Source: Anolis carolinensis
Lineage: Eukaryota
Direction of reading: 5' to 3'
Length of the DNA: 64,000 bases
Assembly (NCBI RefSeq): GCF_035594765.1
Contig: NC_085843.1
Location: 45,926,201-45,990,200 of the forward strand
Within the stretch, counting starts at the first letter, position 1. The number at the start of each line of letters is the position of its first letter. The notes under the pieces are model-generated. The model was not told the DNA's origin. It searched no databases and saw nothing but the letters and a program-made list of their open reading frames with translations. Shown in pieces: positions 20,126 to 64,000 of the stretch. The position numbers and the translations under genes were made by a program.

Positions 20126-20545
20126 TCCTTTTGTTTGACATTTATGTTAGCTACCTTAGGTTTTGGGGAGAAATATAAGTACAGTATTAATCATCCAACG
20201 CTTTCCTTATTCTAAAAAAATCCTCATTTTTCCTTTTTCCCATGCCTAAGATTTTCTGCTGAAAAGAACCTTTGAAGATTTAAAAATGTAACACTAGAAC
20301 AGAGACATTCTCCTGAATAGAAAAAAAATGCTTTTTATATAAGCCACCAGTGATTTTATTTTTAAAATGTTATTTTCCCTTTCTATGTTTTATTATCTAA
20401 GTTTTGCCCTAGTGAATGGCAACTATCATCCTACCTTTTTAGCCAAACATCACTAATGTTGCCTTTGTTGATATTATTGTTGTTCATTTTTTTACTTCAT
20501 GTAGAATTACAAATGAAAAGAATATTCAACAGGTACTAATGTGTG

Positions 20546-20806
20546 ATGACTCATGGGCCTTGTAGTCCTGTTCCTAGTACTATTGTGGCAGATGAAGAGG
20601 AAAACATGGGGTTTTCGCAGGTTCAGCAAGAGCCGGAGTCTCTTCACCTGCAGGATGTTGATGTTTGCCCTCAAGAATTCAGCCAAACAGGCCTTGGGCA
20701 GAACTCCCCCCCGTTTTCCAGGAGGGAAAATTATTCTAAAGATAGGGGAGTCAGGGAGGCTAATCGGAGAAGCCTGAGAATCGCTGCCAAACAAATGGCT
20801 GATTAG
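20546..20806 (+). CDS. Putative LTR U3-encoded peptide (86 aa), copy A
   Basis: MTHGPCSPVPSTIVADEEE...RRSLRIAAKQMAD*; same start, frame and stop position in all three LTR copies. Confidence 0.45.
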   Translation: MTHGPCSPVPSTIVADEEENMGFSQVQQEPESLHLQDVDVCPQEFSQTGLGQNSPPFSRRENYSKDRGVREANRRSLRIAAKQMAD

Positions 20807-20882
20807 GTCTGCTTCCCTTGGGAAATTCTAAGGAGTCATGCATCTGGACAGAGTTGGGTTTCGCTTCTCGTTCTCTAGGGAA

Positions 20883-21777
20883 TGTCAGGACCCAGGCTAC
20901 AGAGCACCAATAACCATACGCAGAGACCAGAATCTATCTAATATCTTTATTAAAGGATTATATAAAGTCAATAAAAGCAAGTGAAGAATATAGTTCAGAA
21001 GTAGACCTTCCAGGAAAGGTCAAATATAGTCCAGGAAAACAATGTCCAATATGTGATATTAGAGTCCAAAGTTGTAATCCAATAACCGAAACACACACTT
21101 TGCCAAGCAAAGTGTGGGGAAATGACAGGGTCCTTTAGTCCAATGGAGCTTGGCAAACAATGCTGGAAGCAAACTAGATTCTTGGCAAACAAGGCTTGAT
21201 ACGTGGCAGCAAGAGGCAAGAAACAAGAACAAGGTCTGTGGCGAGGTCCGTGGAAACAAGGAAAGCTTGATGCTAGAACAAGGTCCGAGAAACAAGGCTT
21301 GGAACTTGGTCCTGGAGGCAAGGGACTGGAGTAGCGTAGTCCACACACGATCTCACTCCACAAGGTGACGAATTGACTCCGCAAGGATTTCTTTGCGGGC
21401 AAACACCTATATAGGATCTTGTTTTCCCGCCAAGGAACACTTTCCCTGGGGAACAAGAGACGAAACCCATACTGTGTCCAGATGCATGACTCCTTAAAGT
21501 TTCCCAAGGGAAACAGACTTAATCAGCTAATTGTCTGGCAGCTATCCTGGCGCTCCTGCGAGTCGCCTCCCGAGCGCCTCTATCTCGATTATAATAATCC
21601 CGGCGAGAAAATGGGGGAGATTTCTGCTCAAGGCTTGTTTGGCTGACTTCTGGTGGGCAAACATCTTGCAGGTGCAAGGGCTCCAATTCTGGCTGAAACG
21701 GTGGGAAACCCAAGTTTTCCTCTTCATCTGCCACAATAGTACTGGGAACGGGACTACATGGCCCATGAGTCATCACA
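20883..21777 (-). mobile_element. Solo LTR, copy B, same family, nested antisense inside copy A
   Basis: TG...CA termini, 5-bp TSD GGGAA (20878-20882 / 21778-21782); reverse-complement similarity to copy A along its whole length. Confidence 0.92.
21519..21773 (-). CDS. Putative LTR U3-encoded peptide (84 aa), copy B
   Basis: MTHGPCSPVPSTIVADEEE...RRSARIAARQLAD*. Confidence 0.45.
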   Translation of the reverse strand: MTHGPCSPVPSTIVADEEENLGFPPFQPELEPLHLQDVCPPEVSQTSLEQKSPPFSRRDYYNRDRGAREATRRSARIAARQLAD

Positions 21778-22989
21778 GGGAAAGAGTTCTGTTGGCGGGA
21801 AAACGAGACCCAATATAGGTGTTTGGCGCGAGGGATTCTTTGCGGAGTCAATTGATCAGCTTGAGGAGAGAGATCGTGTGTGGACTTTGTAATCCCAGTT
21901 CCTTGCTTCCCGGATCAAGCTTCAAGCCTTGCCTTGTCTCACGGTTTTACCACAGACTCTGTTCATGCTTCATGTTCATCTTGCCTCCAGTCACGGATCT
22001 AGTCAAGAATCAAGTTTATTTCCAGCCTTGTTGTCAAGCTTCATTGGACTTTAAAGACTCTGTTATTTCCCCACACTATTGCTTGGCAAAGTGTGTGTTT
22101 CGGTCAAGTGGATTAAAACTTTGAACTCTAATATCTTATATTGGACAATACATTTCTGGACTATATTTGACCTCATCTGAAAGGTCTGCTTCTGAACTAT
22201 ATTCTTCACTTGTTTTTATTGATTTTATATATTTCTTTAATAAAGATATTAGATAGAGACTGGCCTCTGTGTAAGGTTATTGGTGCTCTGCAGCCAGGGT
22301 CCTGACATAATGTTTGGAACACTCTTCACTGATAAGGATTGTTGAAAGATTTTAGTAATTCCACTGACATCCTTAGATATAAAGAGTAAAGTAATAGTGC
22401 TTCAATATAATAAAACGCTTTTTCATAACATAGAAAAACCTTAATCCATTTGTTAGTCCTAACTAGATTAGACATATCAAATCAATGGAATTTAAATAAG
22501 GGTTTGCTCTATAGGGAATACCAGTCAAATTCAGGAACAGGATATTTACCTGGCATTGCCTGAATTGATATTGATTATTTTACTTATGATTTGAATGAAA
22601 CAAAAATGTGATCTATTATCATTGAAATTTGTTTCACATAAAGAACCATGGAAAATGAACAAAATCCAACACTTTTCTGGAAAAGTTGTCATTTTCTCTC
22701 CTGCTCCACTCACTTAAGATTCAAAGATTGCACAAAATGTTTTTGGATGAGAACCTAGGTGTAAATTCTGGTTTAGTTAAAATCAATTCAGAAATGCACA
22801 TTCTAAGTAAAGTAAAATACACTAACTGTGTTTACTGGTAAAAATTTGTAAGGTACTTGAAGATTTGGGTGTATCCAGATCTAAAATTATATAACAAGCT
22901 TCATTTGGCTTCTATTAGACAATATGATGGGTTAATAGCTCTGTAATCAAACATGTGGATTTGTATGAAATAATGGATAGAAAGAAATA

Positions 22990-41718: not shown

Positions 41719-43016
41719 ATCTCTACATTCTGCTATTGTTCCAAAAATGTCTACCCTAGGAATTGCCTAGGGGCTTTGTTTTTAAGTTAATAGGGGATAG
41801 GGATGGATGAGAACTATAGAAAGTAGATGATATTGCTTTTATTAAGTTGTTTTGATTATACACTAATGAAAACACTAGATTTTCACAACCTAATGCCTTC
41901 CAACATCCATAGGACTACAACTGATCAACCAAACCAGAATGTCCAATCCTCAAAATGGAAGTCCAGAAACTCTAGAGGGCCTCATGTTGGGGAAGACTGA
42001 GATATGTTTGGGAAGATTCTTCTGTTCCTAATAAAAGCAAAGGCTTTTATTGGGGACTGGAACATCCATCTGTGTGTCAGGCATTTCTTTTCACACAGAA
42101 CTTCATGCATAATTTATTATGCCCTTTTCTTCAGGTATACATTTTATTATACACATTATTCCTACCTAACTGAAACATGTTTATTTCCTTTTAAAATTGC
42201 ACCTTTATTTATTTATTTACATCATATCTATCCCGTCTTTCTCACCCAAGGGGACTCAAGGTGGCCTTTTTATGAGATCACATTTATGGTGCATGCCCTT
42301 CAATCTACTTATCAGAATATCGTGATCCCACAAATTTCATTTGATTTTCTATGGTAAAAAAAATCACAGATGGTTTTACCAGTTCTCTGATATATAAGTT
42401 ATAACAGCTGGTATTCATTAGCAGTTTCCCATTTATGTATAGGCCAAAGCTGAACCTGCTTAACTTTCAAGATCAATAATCATCTAGCTTCTTCAGGATA
42501 TTTTGTAGGGCTGCACAAAATTTCATCTGTCAGATCTATTTTGTAAGATTTGTGCATACGACATAATATTAAGAAACACGAGGGGCAGCCACGCAAAAAA
42601 CTTAAGGTTCAAAAATAAATACCTTTGACTTTTGGGATAATTATGTAAGTCTTGTAAATGGCTCCAGATCTTCATTGCAGACACCCTCAAAAGGGCTCAG
42701 TTCTTCATTGCTGCACAATTCCAAAGATGTGCCCCAAAGAGCTTTCCTTAGTTATGAATCCAAGAAAGCTAACTTTATACTCATCCTGGGGAAACATAGG
42801 TACATCAAAGGGGATAGATGAGTACATCATGGCATTGCTGTGAATGTTTGTGGCAGCTATTAAATATAAACTAGTATTTTACAAATTCTTTTTTCCCTAG
42901 CTAAGTGGGTTAAACCAATGTTGCTATTATGCTACAACATCTCTGTGCTTAAACTTCATTTTGTTTTCTCTTCCACAGCTTTCTGAGTGACTTGAAAACT
43001 GGCTGCTTAGTATTAA

Positions 43017-46000
43017 CTAGCTTGAGGACCCAGTAGTGCCAGGGTCATTTGAGAAAGGCATTGTTAGCCTGTGTTCCAAGTGTTGTCTAGATCCGTCACT
43101 AGTGGAGGCCGCAGTGGTCTGTGGGAGGCAAAGCAATGGAAAATACTGGAAATTCCATCATCCATGGTACATTCTCCTTCAAACTGCACCAGGATGTAGA
43201 GTAGGTCATGGGGGCTCTATGTGTCATGTTTGGTGTTGATGAGTCATTGGTGTGGGTCTCAGGAAGTTAGTGTAAGTACTGAAAGTCCCATCATCCATAG
43301 TCCATCCTTCCCCACACCACATCAGGGGTTAAAGTGGGCCACATTGCATCTATGTTCCAAGTTTGGTCCAGTTGTGTTATTTGTGGGGGTCACAATGTTC
43401 TGTGGGAGGCGAATTGGGTGAAGGTACTGAAAATCCCATAATCCTTGGTCCATCTTCCCCCAAACTGCTGCAGTGTGTAACGTGTCATTTGGAATATGTG
43501 TGCCAAGTTTGTTTCAGTTCTGTCATTTTTGGTAGTTGCAGTGGTCTCAAGAAGTGAGTGAAGGTATTGGAAATCCCATCATCCTTGGTCCATCCTCCCC
43601 CAATCTTCCCCAGGATGGAAAAGGGTACACAGGGGTTCTGTGTGCCAAGTTTGGTCCTGTTCCATCTGGTGGGCATCACAGTGGTTTGTGGGAGAAAAAG
43701 TGATTCAAAGTACTGCAAATCCAATAATCCATGATCCATCCTCCCCCCCACACCAGGGTGTAAAGTGGGCCAGATTGGATCTGTGTGCCAAGTTTGGTGT
43801 AGTTCCCTCATTTGTGGGCATCTCAATGGTCTATGGGAGGTAAATTGGGAGAAGGAACTGTAAATCCCATAATCCTTGGTCTGTCCTCCCCCAAGGTCTT
43901 GCAGCATGTAAAGTGAGTCATTTGGGATATGTGTGCCTAGTTTGGTTAAGTTCTGTCCTTCCTTGTAGTTGCAGTGGTCTCAGGAAGTGAGTGAAGTTGC
44001 TGCAAATCCCATAATCCATGGTACATCCTCCCCAAACTGCACCAGGGTGTAAAGGGGGTCACGGGAGTTCTGGTCCAGTTATGTCACTTGTGGTCTGTGG
44101 GAGTTGAAGTAATTGAAAGTACTGTAAATCCCATCATCCGTGGCCCATCCTCCCCCACCAGGCCATTAGGTGGGTCATGGGGGTTGAGTGTACCAAGTTT
44201 GGGCCAGGTCCGTCATTCCTGGTGGTCACAGTGGCCTGTGGAATTGGCAGGCAATCAGAAAGCTGCCATATACATACATACAAACACTGACTTTTTAATA
44301 CTAGCTTGGGAACCCGGCGGTGCCTGTGTCATTTGAGAAACTTTTGTGGCAAGTGTGGTCCAGATCTGAAGTTGGCTGGGTCCAGTGCTGTCTGTATAAA
44401 GGTGAACTACTTGGTCCATCCTCCCTCAATCTGCCCCAGGATGGAAAGGGGTTCATGGGGGTTCTGAATGCCAAGTTAGGTCCATTTCTGTCACTGGCAG
44501 GCGTCGCAATGGCCTGTGGGAGCTGTAGCGATCGAAAGTACTACAAATCCCATCACTCATGGTCCATCGTCCCGCAAACTGCATCAGAGCATAAAGTGCG
44601 TCATGGGGATAAAGTGTGTCAAATTTGGTCCAGATCTGTCATTCATGGAGGTTGAAATTGTCCGTGCAAGTGGTGGCCAATCAGAAAGCTGCCACATACT
44701 CCACCGCATACATATATACCCGCATACATACATACAAACATTCACTTTTATTATATACTAGCTTGGAGACCCGGTGGTCCCCAGGTCTTTTGAGAAAGGC
44801 ATTGTTTGCCCATGTTCCAAATGTAGCCTAGATCCAATGTCAGCTGGGTTCAGTGGGTGTGGATGAACTACAACTCCCATATGCAAGTTCCATCATCCAT
44901 CCTCCTCCAAACAATGCCAGGATGGGTTCATGGGTGGTGTGTGTGCCAATTTTGTTCTTGATCAGTCATTGGTGTGGATTCCAGTGGTCTCAGGAAGTGA
45001 GTGAAGGTACTGTAAATCACATCATCCGTGGTCCATTGTTCCCTCAAACTGCAGGAGGATGTAAAGTGGGACACATTGCACATTTGTGTCAAGTTTGGTA
45101 CAGTTTTGTCATTCATGGGCATCACAGTGGTCTTTGGGAGGTGAATGGGATGAAGGTACTGAAAATCCCATCATCCTTGGCCCATTCTCCTGCAAACTGC
45201 ACCAGGACGTAAAGCGGGCCACATTGCACCTATGTGTCAAGTTTGGTACAATTTCGTCATTCATGGTCATCGCAGTGGTCTGTGGGAGGTGAATCAGGTG
45301 AGGGTACTGCAAATCCCATATTCCTTGGTCCATCCTCCTCCAAACTGCTGCAGCATGTGAAGTATGTCATTTGGGATATGTGTGCCAAGTTTGGTTCAGT
45401 TCTGTCATTTGTGGCAGTTGCTGTGGCCTCAAGAAGTGTATGAAGGTCCTGCAAGTCCCATCATCCTTGGCCCATCCTCCCACAACTGGCACCAGGATGT
45501 AAAGGGAGTCATGGGTGTTCTGCCTGCCAAGTTTTGTCGAGTTACATCACTGGTGGGTGTCACAGTGGTCTGTGGGAGGTGAAGTGATTTAAAGTACTGC
45601 AAATCCCATCATCCCTGGCCCATCATCCCCAAATGGCACCAGGACATAAAATGGGTCATAGGTGTTATGTGTGGCAAGTTTGGTCCAGGTCCGTCATTCC
45701 TGGTGGTCATCGTGGCATGTGATAGTGGCGGCCAATCAGAAAGATGCCACACACACCGCCCGTCTGCTGCATACACCGCCGCTCGCCGCATACACACACT
45801 GACTTTTATTATATACTAGCTTGGGTACCCAGCGGTGCCCGGGTCATTTGGAAAACTTGTGTGCCAAGTTTGGTCCAGATCCGAAGTTGGCTGGGTTCAG
45901 TGCTGTTTGTATAAGGGTGAACTCCAACTCTCAGAGCAAAGGGCAATTACCCCGAAACCCTGTCTGTATGCATAGTTGGGCATGATGAGGAAGTGTGCCA

Positions 46001-47290
46001 AGTTTGGTCTAGAACCAAAGTCGGCTGGGTTCAGTGCTGTCTGTATAAGGGTGAACTACAACTCACAGAGCCTAAGGTCAATCACCCCAAAACCCTGCCT
46101 GTATGCACAGTTGGGCATGATGAGGAAGTGTGCCAAGTTTGGTCCAGATCCGAAGTCGGCTGGGTTCAGTGCTGTCTGTATAAGGGTGAACTACAACTCC
46201 CAGAGCAAGAAGTGAGTAAAGCCACTTGGTCCATCCTCCACCAATCTGCCCCAGGACAGAAAGGGTTTCATGGGGGTTTTGTGTGCCAAGTTAGGTCCAG
46301 TTCCATCACTAGTGGGCGTCGCAGTGGTCTGTGGGAGTCGTAGCGATTGAAAGTACTACAAATCCCATCACCCCGCAAATGGCACCAGAGCGTAAAGTGC
46401 GTCATGGGGATTAAGTGTGTCGAGTTTGGTCCAGATCCGTCATTCGTGGCGGTCGTAGTTATCCATGTAAGTGACAGCCAATCAGAAAGCTGCCACATAC
46501 TCCGCCGCATACAGACATACATACCTGGATACAAACACTGACTTTTATTATATACTAGCTTGGGGACCCTGCGGTGCCCGGGTCATTTGAGAAAGGACTT
46601 GTTTGCATGTGCTCCAAGTTTAGTCTTGGTCCAGGGTCAGTGGGGTTCAGTGGGTGCAGGTAACTGACCCATTGAATGGGATCATCCATGGTCCATCCCA
46701 TTCCATACAGCGCCAGGATGTATAGTAGGTCATGGGAACTGTATGTGTCAAGTTTGGTCTTGATCAGACATTGGTGGGGGTTGTAGTGGTCTCGGGAAGT
46801 GAGTGAAGATACTGCAAATCCCATCATCCATGGTCCAAACTCTTCCAAACCACATGTAGATGTAGAGTGGGTAATGGGGCCTCTGTGTCCTAAGTTTGGT
46901 ACTGATTCATTGTAAAGCGGGCCACATTGCACCTGTGTGTCAAGTATGGTACAGTTTCAGTTTTCATGGGTATCACAGTGGTCTGTGGAAGGTGAATTGG
47001 GTGAGGGTATTGCAAATCCCATCATCCTTGGTGCATTCTCCTGCAAACCACACCAGGACTTAAATTGTGTCACATTGCAGCTGTGTGTCAAGTATGGTAC
47101 AGTTTTGTCTTTCATGGGTACCCCCATGGTCTGTGGGAGGTGAATCGGGTGAGGGTACTGCAAATCCCATCATCCATGGTCCATCCTGCGCCAAACCGGA
47201 CCAGGACGTAAAGGGGGCCACATTGCACCTGTGTATCAAGTACCCCCATGGTCTGTGGGAGGTGAATTGGATGAAGGTACTGCAAATCAC
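43017..47290 (-). mobile_element. Head-to-tail array of five non-autonomous Helitron units with internal ~120-bp minisatellite
   Basis: On the minus strand each unit ends in a GC hairpin (ACCCGGG CACC GCTGGGT-like) then CTAG, at 43017, 44301, 44758, 45816 and 46555; four units begin TATATAATAAAAGT-like followed by (GTAT)n; the last CTAG is followed by T; no TSD. Confidence 0.8.
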
Positions 47291-48886
47291 ATTTGCTGAA
47301 ATTAAAATTAAGCAACATTTTAAAAATAGTCTCCTTGAATTGTGATTTGTTTTTGTAAGCTGAATCAATAGACATGTATTCATCCATACTTACTTACACA
47401 ACAGGAAGACTGTGGAGAAGTAGTATTCAAAAACCTCCTTCTGGCAAAACTCTGTCATTGCTTGGTTTCTTTATTATGAATGAAAGAAGCTAGGTTGCTC
47501 GATGTGCTTAATTATGATGGCATAAGAAAGGTGTGTAAGTAATAATGTATCAGAAGAAAGCAATACCAGATCCCTATATTTCACTTGTGTTTGGATATTC
47601 ACAAACAAATTAATCCGAAGCGTAGAAATGTCTCATTAAGTCCATTAGGGATACCTTTATGAAAGGGCTGATTATTGCAGAAGTCTATTTTTTTTTACAA
47701 AAAAAAAATCCAAACAGTCCCACTGAGATCAAGGAAGCAGTCTGCAAATACCAGCTTAACCCAATCGCACTTAGTAATTTATAATAGTGTTGGATGTGTG
47801 CTTTTGAATGGGAGTAAAGTGAAAAAAGCTATGGCAGTGCTTTTGAAGGAGAAGCAATTATCAGCAAGCTAGACAGAGGGATTCTAGTCAGTGCATTTGA
47901 TGTTCAGCACTAAGGCCTTCCCTGCCATGGGATGGAAATGTGCTTGAGGTAGCAGAGCAAGAGGAGTGTGAAACATTCAGCCTGCAACTGTTCTATTTCA
48001 ATTTGGGTGACAACACTTGCTATCTGCTCTCTCACTTTTTCAGCAGGAGTTCAAATGCTTTTCTACCTTCTGCCAATTTTCAGGCAAGAAGAATGATATT
48101 GGGCTAGGAAAGGGAGATCACTTAAAGTTGATGATTTTATGACAACCCTAAAATAACAAAGCCAGACACATGGAGTCGGATTAAACAAGGTCCACTTTAT
48201 TACACCTATTATTTTATGATTTGTACCTGGGAAATTCCTAATGAAGGGGCAGGGGTGAAATGTAGACCACAATTTAGCTGGGCCATGTGTATACTTGTCA
48301 CAACCTCCCTAGTCATTTCTTGGGCAAAACACTTGACCCTGAGGCAATTTGAGATTATAGGTTACTCATCCAGCTAACCATATTTAGGAAAGCTCTACCC
48401 TAGGTCTGACTTCCCAGAACTTTATAAGGCAGAATAAAGCTCCATGTCAGTCCCAAAGACAGGCCCCTTCCCAGATCCTGGTCCCTAGATCCTAAGGAAG
48501 TTGTTTCCCCATCCTTTAACCAAGTGCCAAGATGTACACCAAAACTTTGATATTCCCCTTCCAGTACCTGTCTGCAACACTCATGAGAGGTCAATCAGGC
48601 CATTTACAGCTGGGTCTGATCAGCCTCTCAGGTGTCTTCTTGCAGAGTTCTGTCAACCCAGATATGTGTCATGCCTCAGCATATATTGTTTCATGCCACA
48701 TGGTCTAAGGGGCATATTAAAAGTATTATGAAATCTCTCTGATGAGATTTTGCATAAAATCACACCCTAGTGTGGGGTCTTATGCTAAAATTGTGCCTGT
48801 TTCATAGGTTCACTAGCTTCCTATCTGCCCATTTGCAGTCAGACATCAGTGTAAACAGATTGCACTGCCAACTCTGGCGTCCTTGT

Positions 48887-59884: not shown

Positions 59885-60372
59885 TAGGCTTGATCGATCC
59901 ATGAAAAATTTGATTCTAAACTCGTTCCAAAACTAGAGGGGGCAGTTTTTCGTTTTTGTTGCTAATAACGAATTTGGCCCCCAAAATTTTTCGAAATTAA
60001 CGAAAATTCGTTATTTTCGAAATTAATTCGTTAATGGCGGACGCGCATGCGCGGTGGCCCAAAAACAGCCCGAAGGGGGGGGGACTTAGGGGGCTCTCCC
60101 GCCCTCATTTTTTGAGTGATCTTCTTCAAACTTGGTACAGTGGTAGAACACATTTAACACTGATAGCTCACCAAAATGTGGAACGTTTCCCTTATCCTCT
60201 GATTTTTGGCAAATTTTCATAGCTTTTATAATAAACCATTTTTTAATAATTGCAGAAATCTGTTCCTGGTTTGAAAGTCTTATTTCCTGTTAAATTGGGT
60301 TGTCTTTACTGTGAAAGTCATTGCTCTACTTTAGAAACTTTGTTTTTGTGGCTGAAACTTTGTTAAATTGGT
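59885..60372. mobile_element. One end of a hAT-like DNA transposon
   Basis: TAGGCTTG terminus related to the TIR at 40786; CpG-rich subterminal TTCG/CGAA repeats; internal similarity to 40950-41100; other end not found. Confidence 0.6.
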
Positions 60373-60395
60373 GTAGTCCCTGCATATGTGTGTGT

Positions 60396-60695
60396 GTAAA
60401 GGTATCCCTTGACGTTAAGTTCAGTCATGTCTGACTCTGGGGGTTGTGCTCACCTCCATTTCTAAGCCCAAGAGCCAGTGTTGTCCATAGACACCTCCAA
60501 GGTCATGTGGTCGGCATGACTACATGGAGTGCCATTACCTTCCCGCCACAGCGGTACCTATTCATCTACTCACATTGGCATGTTTTCAAGCTGCTAGGTT
60601 GGCAGAAGCTGGAGCTAACAGCGGGCGCTCACTCTGCTCCCAGGATTTGAACCTGGGACCTTTCAGTCTGCAAGTTCAGCAGCTCAATGGTCTTT
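60396..60695 (-). mobile_element. Sauria SINE, older and slightly 5'-truncated
   Basis: Colinear with 52330-52651. Confidence 0.88.
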
Positions 60696-61059
60696 GCCTT
60701 GGCTGCCTTCCAGATCAGGCTTATAACCAGCCTATTATGGGCCACAAATTAAAGAAAATTCAATCCCATTTAAGCACAACATGAACAGTTTTGATGCCAA
60801 AACCATAAACTCTGTTTATTAAACTCTACGATCCAAACTTTAGAACAACTTGCAAACAATTGAAGGTTAGACCACAGTAATAATAACCAATTCTATTCCT
60901 TTCCAAAATTTAAACATAAAATAGTATCTTTCTTTCCAATAGCATATAAACTTTTCCTTTCTTTACAAAACAAAATTCTAGACAGTAGCCATTTAGAAGA
61001 TATTTCTATATTTTCCCTGCAAAGGATAGGGCTGCATCCCTCTGGAGACACACATGATA

Positions 61060-61330
61060 ACCCGGACATGATATAAGGCACTTATATACGTTAAATAAAC
61101 ATGATGTCATTGCATATATAAAAGAAGCATGATATTAGGCAATTATAGTTGCAAATAATATAATTAAACATGTAAAAATTATACATCCATACATAAAAGA
61201 AACATGTAAAGTAACTGCATATATAAAACACAATATAAAATATGATATAAGGCAATTACAGATGTCAAAGGAACGTGATATTACATATGTAAAAAACATG
61301 ATTATATGTATAAAAAAGCATGATACAAGG
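61060..61330. repeat. Degenerate AT-rich tandem repeat (CATGATATAAGGCAATTA units), continuing after the LTR at 62194
   Basis: Motif recurs at ~61067, 61128, 61241 and 61319. Confidence 0.6.
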
Positions 61331-62193
61331 TGTCAGGATCTAGGCTGCTGGGCACCAATAACCATACACTGAGGCCAGATTCTATCTAATATCTTTATTA
61401 AAGGAATATATAAAGTCAATAAAAACAAGTGTAGAATAAAGTTCAGAAGCAGACCTTTCAAATGAGGCCAAATATAGTCCAGCAGATTATTGTCCAATAT
61501 GAAATATTAGAGTCCAAAGATTATAATCCAATAACCGCAACACACGCTTTGCCAAGCAAAGCGTTGGGAAAACAGAAAAAGTCTTGAATCCAATGAAGCT
61601 TGACACAAGGCTGAAAGTTACTTGGAACGTGGCTGGAGCTGTGGCTAAAGGCAAAGCAACTTGAAGCATGGAACAAGATCTGTGGTAAATCCGTGAGACG
61701 AGGACAAGGCTTGGAACTAGATTCAGGAGGCAAGGAACAGGATTCGAAGTCCACACACACATGACCTCTCTCCAGGAGCTGACGAATTGACTCCGCAAGG
61801 AATCCTTCGCGCAATTTCCCTATATTGGGTCTCGTTTCCCCAAACAACAATCACTTTCCCTAGAGAACAGGGAGCGAAGGAAACCAGCTTGCAGGTGCAA
61901 GACTCCCCGTATTTTCTCAGGGGAAATACTTCTAATCAGTGGCATATTTGGCAGCAAGGCGAGCACTACTTCTAAATTTTTCTCTCGATCCTCTATCAGT
62001 CGTGTAAGCCTGTTTTCTCCCATAAGGGGGAGAGTTCCCACCAAGGTCAGGTTTAATTGGTTCTTGGACTAGAACTTCAGGCAGCTGCCAAGGCTCTGAC
62101 TCCGACCGGAAATCTGGGGAAAACTCCATATTTTCCTCCTCATCTGCCACAATACTGTCAGGAATAGGACTGCAGGGCCCATGAGTCATCACA
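61331..62193 (-). mobile_element. Solo LTR, copy C, same family as 20542/20883
   Basis: TG...CA termini; 5-bp TSD CAAGG / CTAGG (one mismatch); colinear with copy B; AATAAA on the minus strand at 61394-61399. Confidence 0.9.
61932..62189 (-). CDS. Putative LTR U3-encoded peptide (85 aa), copy C
   Basis: MTHGPCSPIPDSIVADEEE...RSSARLAAKYATD*. Confidence 0.45.
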   Translation of the reverse strand: MTHGPCSPIPDSIVADEEENMEFSPDFRSESEPWQLPEVLVQEPIKPDLGGNSPPYGRKQAYTTDRGSREKFRSSARLAAKYATD

Positions 62194-62452
62194 CTAGGCA
62201 ACTGACACATCTAAAAGAAACACAATATAATTAACCTAGGTACAACAAATGTGAAAGAAGGCAACAATATACATAAAAAAACATTTCTGGACTCACAAAT
62301 GTAGTCTAAGAGAATTGGGCTTCCATTCTCCAAACCTGAAACAAAGTGGGAGGAAATGTAAAGAGTGTTAATGATGCTCGAAATCAAATGTTGTTCTTTT
62401 ACAAAGTCAAACTAAAACTAAGGATAAATGCTTCGGTCTTCTCCTGATCTTC

Positions 62453-62974
62453 TTATCTCCTCACCTTGCGTCCAGCCGAGTTACGTCCGCACTTGCGATA
62501 CAGCGACCTCTTCCCTTGGCTCAGTGGGCAGTATTTTAAAGTATGGGCCTTTTCGCCCGTGGCACCGCAGAGCGGACAGGTGTATTTGCGCAAGATGGGG
62601 CACTCCACGGTGCCGTCCATCCCCTTCAGCCGGTGGGACGAATAGACCTGCTTGGATTCCCCGTTGTGTTTGCAGAAATTGCAAATCTCCTTGTTTTGGG
62701 AAGCCTGGCCATTGGCACTACCTTTGGAGCTCTTGCTGCTGGAACTGCTTCCATTAACCCATTGTGATGCTGTTTCAAAGTTGTCCTCGTTGAGGACTAG
62801 CTGCATGTCGTACTCCATTGTGTCCCAACTCTGAGATGGAAATGGGACCTTCTTGCGTTCCGCGATGATCTCCGTAACCACTTTCGCAAGGCTCAGATAG
62901 CCCTTCCATCTGTCAAACTCCCTGAACATGGAAGGGGCATAATGTGGCACGTGCATGGCTGATCTGGAGAGCAT
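62453..62974 (-). CDS. NANOS2: Nanos homolog 2 (CCHC zinc-finger RNA-binding translational repressor), single exon, 173 aa
   Basis: Translation has the Nanos double-CCHC finger [17 protein letters not shown]...[26 protein letters not shown], an N-terminal NOT1-interacting-like motif [14 protein letters not shown], and a NANOS2-type C-terminus [17 protein letters not shown]. The ATG at 62974 is in Kozak context GGCACCATG and lies downstream of a TATA box; the longer ORF-track start at 63088 is upstream of that TATA. Confidence 0.95.
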
Positions 62975-63037
62975 GGTGCCAATTCTACCCTGGTGTGGAC
63001 ACACACTGAATGCCACATATTGGAGGCGGAGTCTTTG

Positions 63038-63164
63038 TTTTATATATAAGGGGAGGGGTTCCAAACCTTTCACATTGGACCCTCCCATCTATTTTTACCC
63101 TCCTTTGCCCTAGATTTAACCCCCACATGTCTAGACAATCACAGCTTTTCAAGGAAGAGATTGG
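63038..63164 (-). promoter_or_regulatory. Putative nanos2 core promoter: TATA box plus two CCAAT boxes
   Basis: Minus strand TATATAAAA at ~63038-63046, about 65-70 nt upstream of the ATG; CCAAT at 63074-63078 and 63160-63164. Confidence 0.65.
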
Positions 63165-63215
63165 TTTTTCCAATTTTTTAACTTCGGAGGTAATGCCACA
63201 GTTTCTCCCTTGAGG

Positions 63216-63350
63216 CAGTGGTTCTCGACTTGTGGGTCCCCAGATGTTTTGGCCTTCAACTCCCAGAAATCCTAACAGCTGGTAAAATGGCTGGGATTTC
63301 TGGGACTTGTAGGTAAAAACACCTGGAGATCCACAGGTTGAGAAACACTG
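63216..63350. mobile_element. hAT (Charlie-like) MITE
   Basis: TIR CAGTGGTTCTC / GAGAAACACTG, near-palindromic body, 8-bp TSD CCTT(G/A)AGG at 63208-63215 and 63351-63358. Confidence 0.88.
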
Positions 63351-63514
63351 CCTTAAGGGAACGTTAGCAGTTGTGGTTCTGTTTGTCCATCCAAGAATGA
63401 GTTGAATTTCTGCCTTGGATGAAATAGCAACATTGCACATCCAACGTTTGCCAAAGTCCTGAAGGACGGATCCAGTAATGATGAAGCCTGCAAGAGTGTT
63501 ATATTGCTTTTGCA

Positions 63515-63720
63515 TGGCAGAATAGCATTGGACTGGATGGTCTCTTCTACCTTTATGATTCTATGATGTTTGGCGCCATGACTCTATGATTCTATCATTT
63601 TAGGATTCTAGGACTTTTGGGATGATTCTGTTACTTGGTTCTTTGAGTCTATGACTTTAGGGACCATGTTTCTATTATTCAATGACTTCTGTGAACATAT
63701 TTCTATGACTTTTGTGACCA
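63515..63720 (+). mobile_element. CR1 3' end with an expanded degenerate (ATTCTATG)n tail
   Basis: TTGGACTGGATGG...ATGATTCTATGA followed by about 10 degenerate octamers. Confidence 0.6.
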
Positions 63721-63793
63721 TTCATGGGCCATCTGGCTAGTATTCCGGGACGGTAAATGATATATCGGTTACAGCATCAGATATTTCTGGATA

Positions 63794-64000
63794 CAGTAGA
63801 GTCTCGCTTATCCAACATTAACGGGCCAGCAGAACGTTGGATAAGCAAATATGTTGGATGATAAGGAGACATTAAGGAAAAGCCTTTTGAACAGCAAATT
63901 AGGTTATTTTACAAATTAAGCCCCAAAAAATCTTGTTTAACAGCAAATTAGACAGAAAAGGTAGTTCAATACGCAGTAATATTACATAGTAATTACGAAT
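63794..64000. mobile_element. Tc1/mariner (Tigger-like) MITE running off the window end
   Basis: TA-CAGTAGAGTCTCGCTTATCCAAC start with internal IR GTTGGATAAGC. Confidence 0.65.

Follow-up and report, generated by a model that had tools for sequence, protein, structure and literature searches.

An open reading frame in the U3 of a young Anolis chromovirus is the C-terminal tail of Pol and carries a putative HMGN-like nucleosome anchor

Introduction

Chromatin finding by vertebrate LTR retrotransposons is little studied. In HIV and MMTV, the U3 of the 3' LTR is overlapped by coding sequence, nef and sag respectively, which are separate genes with their own mRNA. A related question is raised by a locus of Anolis carolinensis, where three LTRs of one family lie in the window (the whole stretch of 64,000 nt that was analysed), each with a small open reading frame (ORF) in U3 and an arginine-rich ending of HMGN-like appearance: to which protein does this frame belong, and what might its ending do? 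The earlier note had offered an accessory peptide or the tail of a longer ORF, and had described three ORFs of 86, 84 and 85 aa, free of internal stops and ending in RRSLRIAA, RRSARIAA and RSSARLAA, all of which were recovered at the positions given below.

LTRs and reading frames in the window

The features concerned are as follows.

20542..22307, + strand: solo LTR-A, with TG...CA ends and the target-site duplication (TSD) TAATG at 20537-20541 and 22308-22312, interrupted by LTR-B
20546..20806, + strand: C-terminal tail of Pol, U3 copy, subfamily A (86 aa, P0001)
20765..20788, + strand: codons of the RRSLRIAA motif of LTR-A
20883..21777, - strand: solo LTR-B (895 nt), nested in LTR-A, with the TSD GGGAA at 20878-20882 and 21778-21782
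21373..21382, - strand: GCGGAGTCAA, complement of the primer-binding site of full-length copies and inferred 5' end of the transcript (self-priming)
21408..21413, - strand: TATA-like box of LTR-B, 3' of the ORF stop
21519..21773, - strand: C-terminal tail of Pol, U3 copy, subfamily B (84 aa, P0002)
21537..21560, - strand: codons of the RRSARIAA motif of LTR-B (HMGN/Dot5-like)
59885..64000, no strand assigned: left part of a young hAT DNA transposon that carries LTR-C and continues past the window
61331..62193, - strand: solo LTR-C (863 nt), hAT passenger, with the flanks CAAGG and CTAGG
61932..62189, - strand: C-terminal tail of Pol, U3 copy, diverged subfamily C (85 aa, P0003)
61950-61973, - strand: RSSARLAA, tail of subfamily C

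In all three LTRs the ORF starts at LTR nucleotide 5, within the terminal TGTGATG. The pattern R[RS]S.R[IL] has three matches in the 127,996 aa of the six-frame translation of the window, and all three are the LTR ORFs, the copy in LTR-C being without the second arginine of the motif (RSSARLAA); shuffling of the three LTR peptides produced the pattern in 95-201 of 200,000 cases. The reading of the LTRs as three independent solo insertions was ruled out, LTR-B being nested in LTR-A and LTR-C being a hAT passenger. LTR-B is inverted within LTR-A, between the ORF and the TATA box of the latter, and a second opposite-orientation pair of LTRs of the same family, about 1.1 kb apart, was found elsewhere (L081); a preference of the family LTRs for inserting into their own LTRs is possible.

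All 30 of the 30 top copies share the flanks of LTR-C and are 98.5-99.9% identical over the 3.3 kb compared (L034-L063), and the many copies of LTR-C are thus hAT passengers. The hAT element is high-copy and very young and has internal tandem repeats; a BED-hAT transposase ORF of 713 aa lies beyond the window (L099, 6411-8552, - strand), and a head-to-tail hAT junction with a period of about 10.5 kb was observed in L097. The window also holds, at 42970-47300, a degenerate array of units of about 146 nt, with 16 copies of an 81-nt core that are 60-85% alike, a GC content of 45-49% and a single ORF of at least 150 aa.

Continuity of the U3 frame with Pol

The U3 ORF is the C-terminal tail of the Pol of a young, high-copy Ty3/Gypsy chromovirus and no separate gene. 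In full-length copies, Pol crosses the polypurine tract (PPT) into the 3' LTR and ends at the stop of the U3 ORF, and one natural copy (L033) keeps a single Pol ORF of 1234 aa, from protease through to that stop. The Pfam families found on Pol, namely PR, RT, RH, IN, SH3 and Chromo, all lie ahead of the tail; RT, RH and IN exceed the Pfam cut-offs, and the protease matches fall under them. The chromodomain (PF00385, E 6.3e-09, residues 1075-1123) has the aromatic residues F, W and F/Y by eye. Among the 57 chromodomain starts collected, 42 are open to the motif-bearing end; 56 were examined for an LTR start, which was found in 55, and the LTR ATG is in the chromodomain frame in 47 of these 55 3' LTRs, in which two elements appear twice, and out of frame in eight. 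In seven of the eight, the shift is of 1-2 nt and falls in G-rich stretches of the linker or PPT, alongside in-frame relatives. The tail frame of subfamily A is shared with the chromodomain in the 3' LTRs L065, L067, L068 and L094. For subfamily C no 3' LTR was found, its closest LTR clusters being about 73% identical, so that the connection of P0003 to Pol rests on homology. Two UniRef Pol entries of Anolis, with 94 and 366 members, terminate in RRSARIAAKNLAN and hence already contain the tail. Some public Anolis gene models, annotated as a cation-transporting ATPase (P0008), an uncharacterised locus (P0043) and an RT-domain protein (P0026), also end in the LTR ORF, through running on or being spliced into an LTR; they are probably annotation artefacts or cases of LTR exonisation.

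The search in full-length elements for an internal ORF feeding the U3 frame, as proposed in the earlier note, led to Pol through its chromodomain. Of the two possibilities raised there, the tail of a longer ORF has held, and the free peptide of the nef/sag kind has not, its ATG being that of the att terminus and its ORF lying upstream of the inferred transcript start. A free accessory gene was rejected on the frame continuity, the att-derived ATG and that location. It is very unlikely that a spliced or read-through transcript yields, additionally or as the main product of the ORF, a free peptide of about 85 aa initiated at the LTR ATG. For such a product speak the ATG in nearly all copies, the ORF of 80-100 aa kept in 141 of 147 LTR records, and several copies with a retained LTR ORF in another frame than Pol. 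However, the ATG belongs to the TGTGATG terminus of the LTR, and TGATG is a conserved chromovirus LTR terminus, described as such for the plant CRM chromoviruses too (PMC3059260), so the ATG requires no further explanation; one copy (L163) has AGG in its place with the frame otherwise intact. The out-of-frame cases differ among themselves and fall in G-runs, beside in-frame relatives, and the intact ORFs are to be expected in copies as young as these, the paired LTRs of which differ by 3-7 mismatches.

Class, priming and age of the element

A full-length copy contains a gag with a zinc knuckle, a PPT before the 3' LTR and paired TG...CA LTRs, and since Pol runs into the LTR there is no space for env. 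Among named proteins, the closest are Gypsy Pol entries in UniRef from Anolis carolinensis; frog and cyprinid ones come next. In its tested features, the family fits a Tf1/sushi-type chromovirus, a placement made by features and nearest named proteins. Like the vertebrate chromoviruses of the Tf1/sushi group (GyDB V-clade: Sushi-ichi, Amn-san), it has the order PR-RT-RH-IN with an integrase chromodomain, TG...CA LTRs, a 5-bp TSD, a PPT and a primer-binding site (PBS) of the self-priming type.

The PBS, TTGACTCCGC, stands after the 5' LTR and is complementary to GCGGAGTCAA, which lies about 30 nt 3' of the TATA-like box; the 10-nt complementarity to LTR nucleotides ~396-405 is present in ten 5'-LTR records, and in the diverged copy L154 the PBS and its LTR complement have changed together, as a compensated variant. 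The PBS-complementary site was found in 32 of the 34 LTR clusters described below, every time downstream of the ORF. Self-priming in the Tf1/sushi group works by pairing of the mRNA 5' end with the PBS (PMC4600332, PMC6317226), and, as judged from the matching sites, the Anolis element appears to be primed by an arrangement of this type. Its transcript would start at about LTR nucleotide 396, some 135 nt beyond the ORF stop. With a start 3' of the ORF, transcription would take in the ORF only in the 3' LTR, within pol, and the copies in 5' and solo LTRs would be silent cargo. The location of the ORF upstream of the LTR TATA, pointed out earlier, is borne out by LTR-B, with its TATA-like box downstream of the ORF stop; together with the self-priming start, it speaks against the free peptide. 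Four contig sets from presumed RNA runs cover all 30 element bins; these contigs are short and uninformative on strand, start and level, and none of the eight joints listed in them connects the 5' region to the tail.

Each ORF, used as a query against the genome, gave 40 of 40 scored matches at 99-100% identity, these being the best 40 of 2864, 1391 and 2554 first-look candidates, which are not copy numbers. Full-length elements are marked by LTR pairs about 5.35 kb apart; the divergence of 3-7 mismatches noted above comes from five of them, and an exact 5-bp TSD is retained in 39 of 44 solo LTRs, which together indicate that the family is young. In L075 and L076 (L096), family LTRs lie 6.3 kb apart with identical upstream flanks, a local tandem duplication and not a full-length element.

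Selection on the tail

The LTRs were gathered by their DNA ends and amount to 147 records, of which 113 are distinct (some copies were fetched twice), in 34 clusters at 95%. Indels were counted along a minimum spanning tree of the 34 cluster representatives, with natural copies only: the length is a multiple of three in 15 of 25 tail indels versus 14 of 209 elsewhere in the LTR (Fisher p 8e-10), and the count by alignment gaps gave 10 of 15 versus 25 of 112. Substitutions per site at codon positions 1, 2 and 3 are 0.085, 0.074 and 0.154 in the tail versus 0.103, 0.108 and 0.105 in the rest of the LTR. Maximum-likelihood codon models, run on 18 representatives drawn from the 40 of 57 chromodomain starts with an intact motif and at least 200 open upstream codons, yielded an omega of 0.208 for the integrase, 0.155 for the chromodomain, 0.279 for the tail, 0.452 for the middle of the tail and 0.207 for the last 33 columns, the set being pre-selected for the intact motif and the omega of the motif block therefore biased low. 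The counts of indels, codon positions and residues in the 34 clusters are free of this bias.

In the 34 clusters, which were chosen by DNA alone, R72 is kept in 32, R73 in 31, S74 in 34, R76 in 32, I/L77 in 34, A78 in 33 and A79 in 34. Six different codons, AGR as well as CGN, encode R76; 33 of the 34 clusters retain the stop, as TAA in 11 and TAG in 22. The SP[PV][FY] block at residues 52-55 is equally conserved. It resembles the SP[EDAV][FY] with which many Pol proteins of fish chromoviruses end shortly past the LTR boundary (P0011, P0016, P0017, P0020, P0053, P0145, P0159, P0164, compared with P0002), and may represent a conserved motif of older date or a site of proline-directed phosphorylation.

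Purifying selection acts on the tail, and the signals predicted for this case, an omega well under 1, an excess of frame-keeping indels and an ORF that stays open, were all obtained. That the tail is a functionless read-through, its frame open by chance or through constraint on the U3 DNA, is largely refuted and must be regarded as extremely improbable. The variable middle of the tail would suit it, as would the DNA-level roles of U3. Three features nevertheless point to the protein level: substitutions are in excess at third positions, indels tend to preserve the frame, and both motif and stop persist through changes between synonymous codons. The first two of them are absent from the rest of the same LTR.

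Relatives in other genomes

A profile search of 1.84 billion representatives and a tail-only search revealed no HMGN-like tail outside Anolis-labelled proteins or close members of the family, all 12 matches of the tail-only search being Anolis-labelled or of this family; among 157 proteins scanned past the chromodomain, the HMGN-like motif was present in four. A PPT-like linker occurs in 37 of 136 chromodomain-bearing proteins, and the fish Pol proteins among these often extend by 16-38 aa and end in SPE[FY] or similar. Proteins of Rhineura, Vipera and Crotalus have tails of 86-107 aa that are acidic and then basic, with other tips (DARRRRQ..., KRGRP...), and Podarcis models show an acidic tail start; these squamate relatives are gene models of uncertain integrity, and a homologue search with the viper tail returned one protein. 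A second Anolis chromovirus family with long open Pol frames (L107, L112-L114, L119, L120, L124-L135, L137, L138, L141, L142) mostly ends about 14 aa past the chromodomain, without the tail. By these comparisons, Pol commonly reads on into the LTR across the clade, several squamates have a long bipolar tail, and the HMGN-like tip was observed in this family only.

The C-terminal motif as a putative nucleosome anchor

The tail starts with an acidic part, of net charge -8 to -10, and closes with a basic one (+5). Its RRSARIAA matches the RRSARIAT of Dot5 at seven of eight positions, and the core arginines 1, 2 and 5 of RRSxR[LI] are the residues R72, R73 and R76 kept in 32, 31 and 32 of the 34 clusters. 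In vertebrate HMGN, the core RRSARLSA is reported to bind the H2A-H2B acidic patch (PMC12480509); yeast Dot5 is described as binding the acidic patch by RRSARIAT, with R6, R7 and R10 required for nucleosome binding (PMC13347269); and foamy virus Gag is reported to hold an arginine anchor on the acidic patch, the loss of which redistributes integration sites (PMC9040877). A search of P0001-P0003 against Pfam gave no family at E<=1, and thus no match to the HMGN family profile; a PDB search returned matches only to Ty3, caulimovirus-type and retroviral Pol, none of which extends to the tail. The likeness to HMGN is well motivated by the motif itself and by the Dot5 precedent, and the reading preferred here, to which a probability of about 0.6 is given, is that the ORF supplies the last 84-96 residues of Pol and that its RRS[A/L]R[I/L]AA end probably anchors to the H2A-H2B acidic patch by its arginines. 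Against this reading stand the restriction of the motif to Anolis-labelled proteins and the family, the eight 3' LTRs out of frame with Pol, the missing second arginine of LTR-C, and the second Anolis family, whose ending shortly after its chromodomain implies that a tail is not essential for chromoviruses here.

The same anatomy of the Pol tail would, however, be compatible with a basic tip that acts as a nuclear localisation signal or as a helix binding DNA regardless of sequence, its likeness to HMGN being incidental, an alternative that appears possible though doubtful. In keeping with it, the squamate relatives retain the acidic-then-basic tail with unrelated basic tips, and the reference list of PMC3605345 includes work on a C-terminal nuclear localisation signal of Ty1 integrase. 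A structure model of chromodomain plus tail (12 sequences) likewise makes the last 27 residues helical, in a low-confidence prediction (mean pLDDT 51.5, pTM 0.17) in which the chromodomain is misfolded. Against this alternative, S74, I/L77, A78 and A79 are conserved as strongly as the arginines, and R72, R73 and R76 are never replaced by K in the 34 clusters, while positions 58 and 80 alternate between R and K, a pattern of specific arginine anchoring and not of a charge patch.

If the end is an arginine anchor, the following mode of action may be proposed. The tail, which the Pol frame reaches without a break from the integrase chromodomain across the PPT, would remain on the mature integrase and form an acidic linker, probably disordered, that ends in a basic tip. 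By the precedents of HMGN, Dot5 and foamy virus Gag, the tip would grip the acidic patch and tether the integration complex, as a putative second nucleosome contact beside the aromatic-cage chromodomain. The integrase might therewith be a two-point nucleosome reader, with a chromodomain of the methyl-lysine type and an acidic-patch anchor of the HMGN/Dot5 type on a flexible tail encoded by the LTR; even odds would be placed on this wider proposal.

Comparison with known systems and significance

The running of Pol through the PPT into the LTR is shared with the fish relatives of the Tf1/sushi group, in which the extension is about 16-38 aa with an SPE[FY]-type end. The Anolis tail is 84-96 aa long, acidic then basic, and has an HMGN-like end that was not observed in the relatives examined (fish, viper, worm-lizard and wall-lizard). 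In group A of the plant CRM elements, too, Pol is described as continuing into the 3' LTR, where it codes for a targeting module (PMC3059260, PMC3605345). This module is the CR motif, a substitute for the chromodomain that is associated with a centromeric location (PMC3059260). The Anolis element is like these in its Pol extension and differs from them in retaining the chromodomain and adding the tail to it, and in that its top copies are spread along contigs.

The motif agrees with HMGN RRSARLSA, Dot5 RRSARIAT and tardigrade Dsup RRSSRLTS in the form RRS.R[IL], with the three essential arginines in place. In contrast to these proteins, it stands at the extreme C-terminus of a retrotransposon Pol and is a putative binder. 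Prototype foamy virus (PFV) Gag, and also KSHV LANA and HCMV IE1, tether a mobile genome by an acidic-patch arginine anchor, which according to PMC9040877 shapes the integration sites of PFV. In these systems the anchor is on Gag or a separate protein, unlike the putative anchor of Anolis, which is on the integrase; no sequence homology is claimed. From nef and sag the Anolis frame differs in being continuous with Pol, with no separate ORF of its own start.

Neither a chromodomain with an HMGN-like anchor on a retrotransposon integrase nor the Anolis tail was found in the literature searched, and Repbase or Dfam entries may describe the read-through. Already known are the extension of Pol into the 3' LTR, from plant CRM, and the tail as such, from UniRef; absent from the literature searched is the HMGN-like tip beside an integrase chromodomain. 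The LTR-encoded end of Pol is a site of lineage-specific chromovirus tips: SPE[FY] in fish, varied basic ends in squamates and the CR motif in plants.

Acidic-patch tethering has been established for foamy virus Gag and herpesvirus proteins, and was not found for a retrotransposon integrase in the literature searched. Should the motif be a nuclear localisation signal, ordinary transposon anatomy would be at hand. The motif of eight residues, with a close proven twin in Dot5, is testable with a synthetic peptide and nucleosomes. If the anchor reading is true, the acidic-patch tether would be on the integrase itself and would have an origin separate from HMGN, Dsup and Dot5, within a family whose expansion continues.
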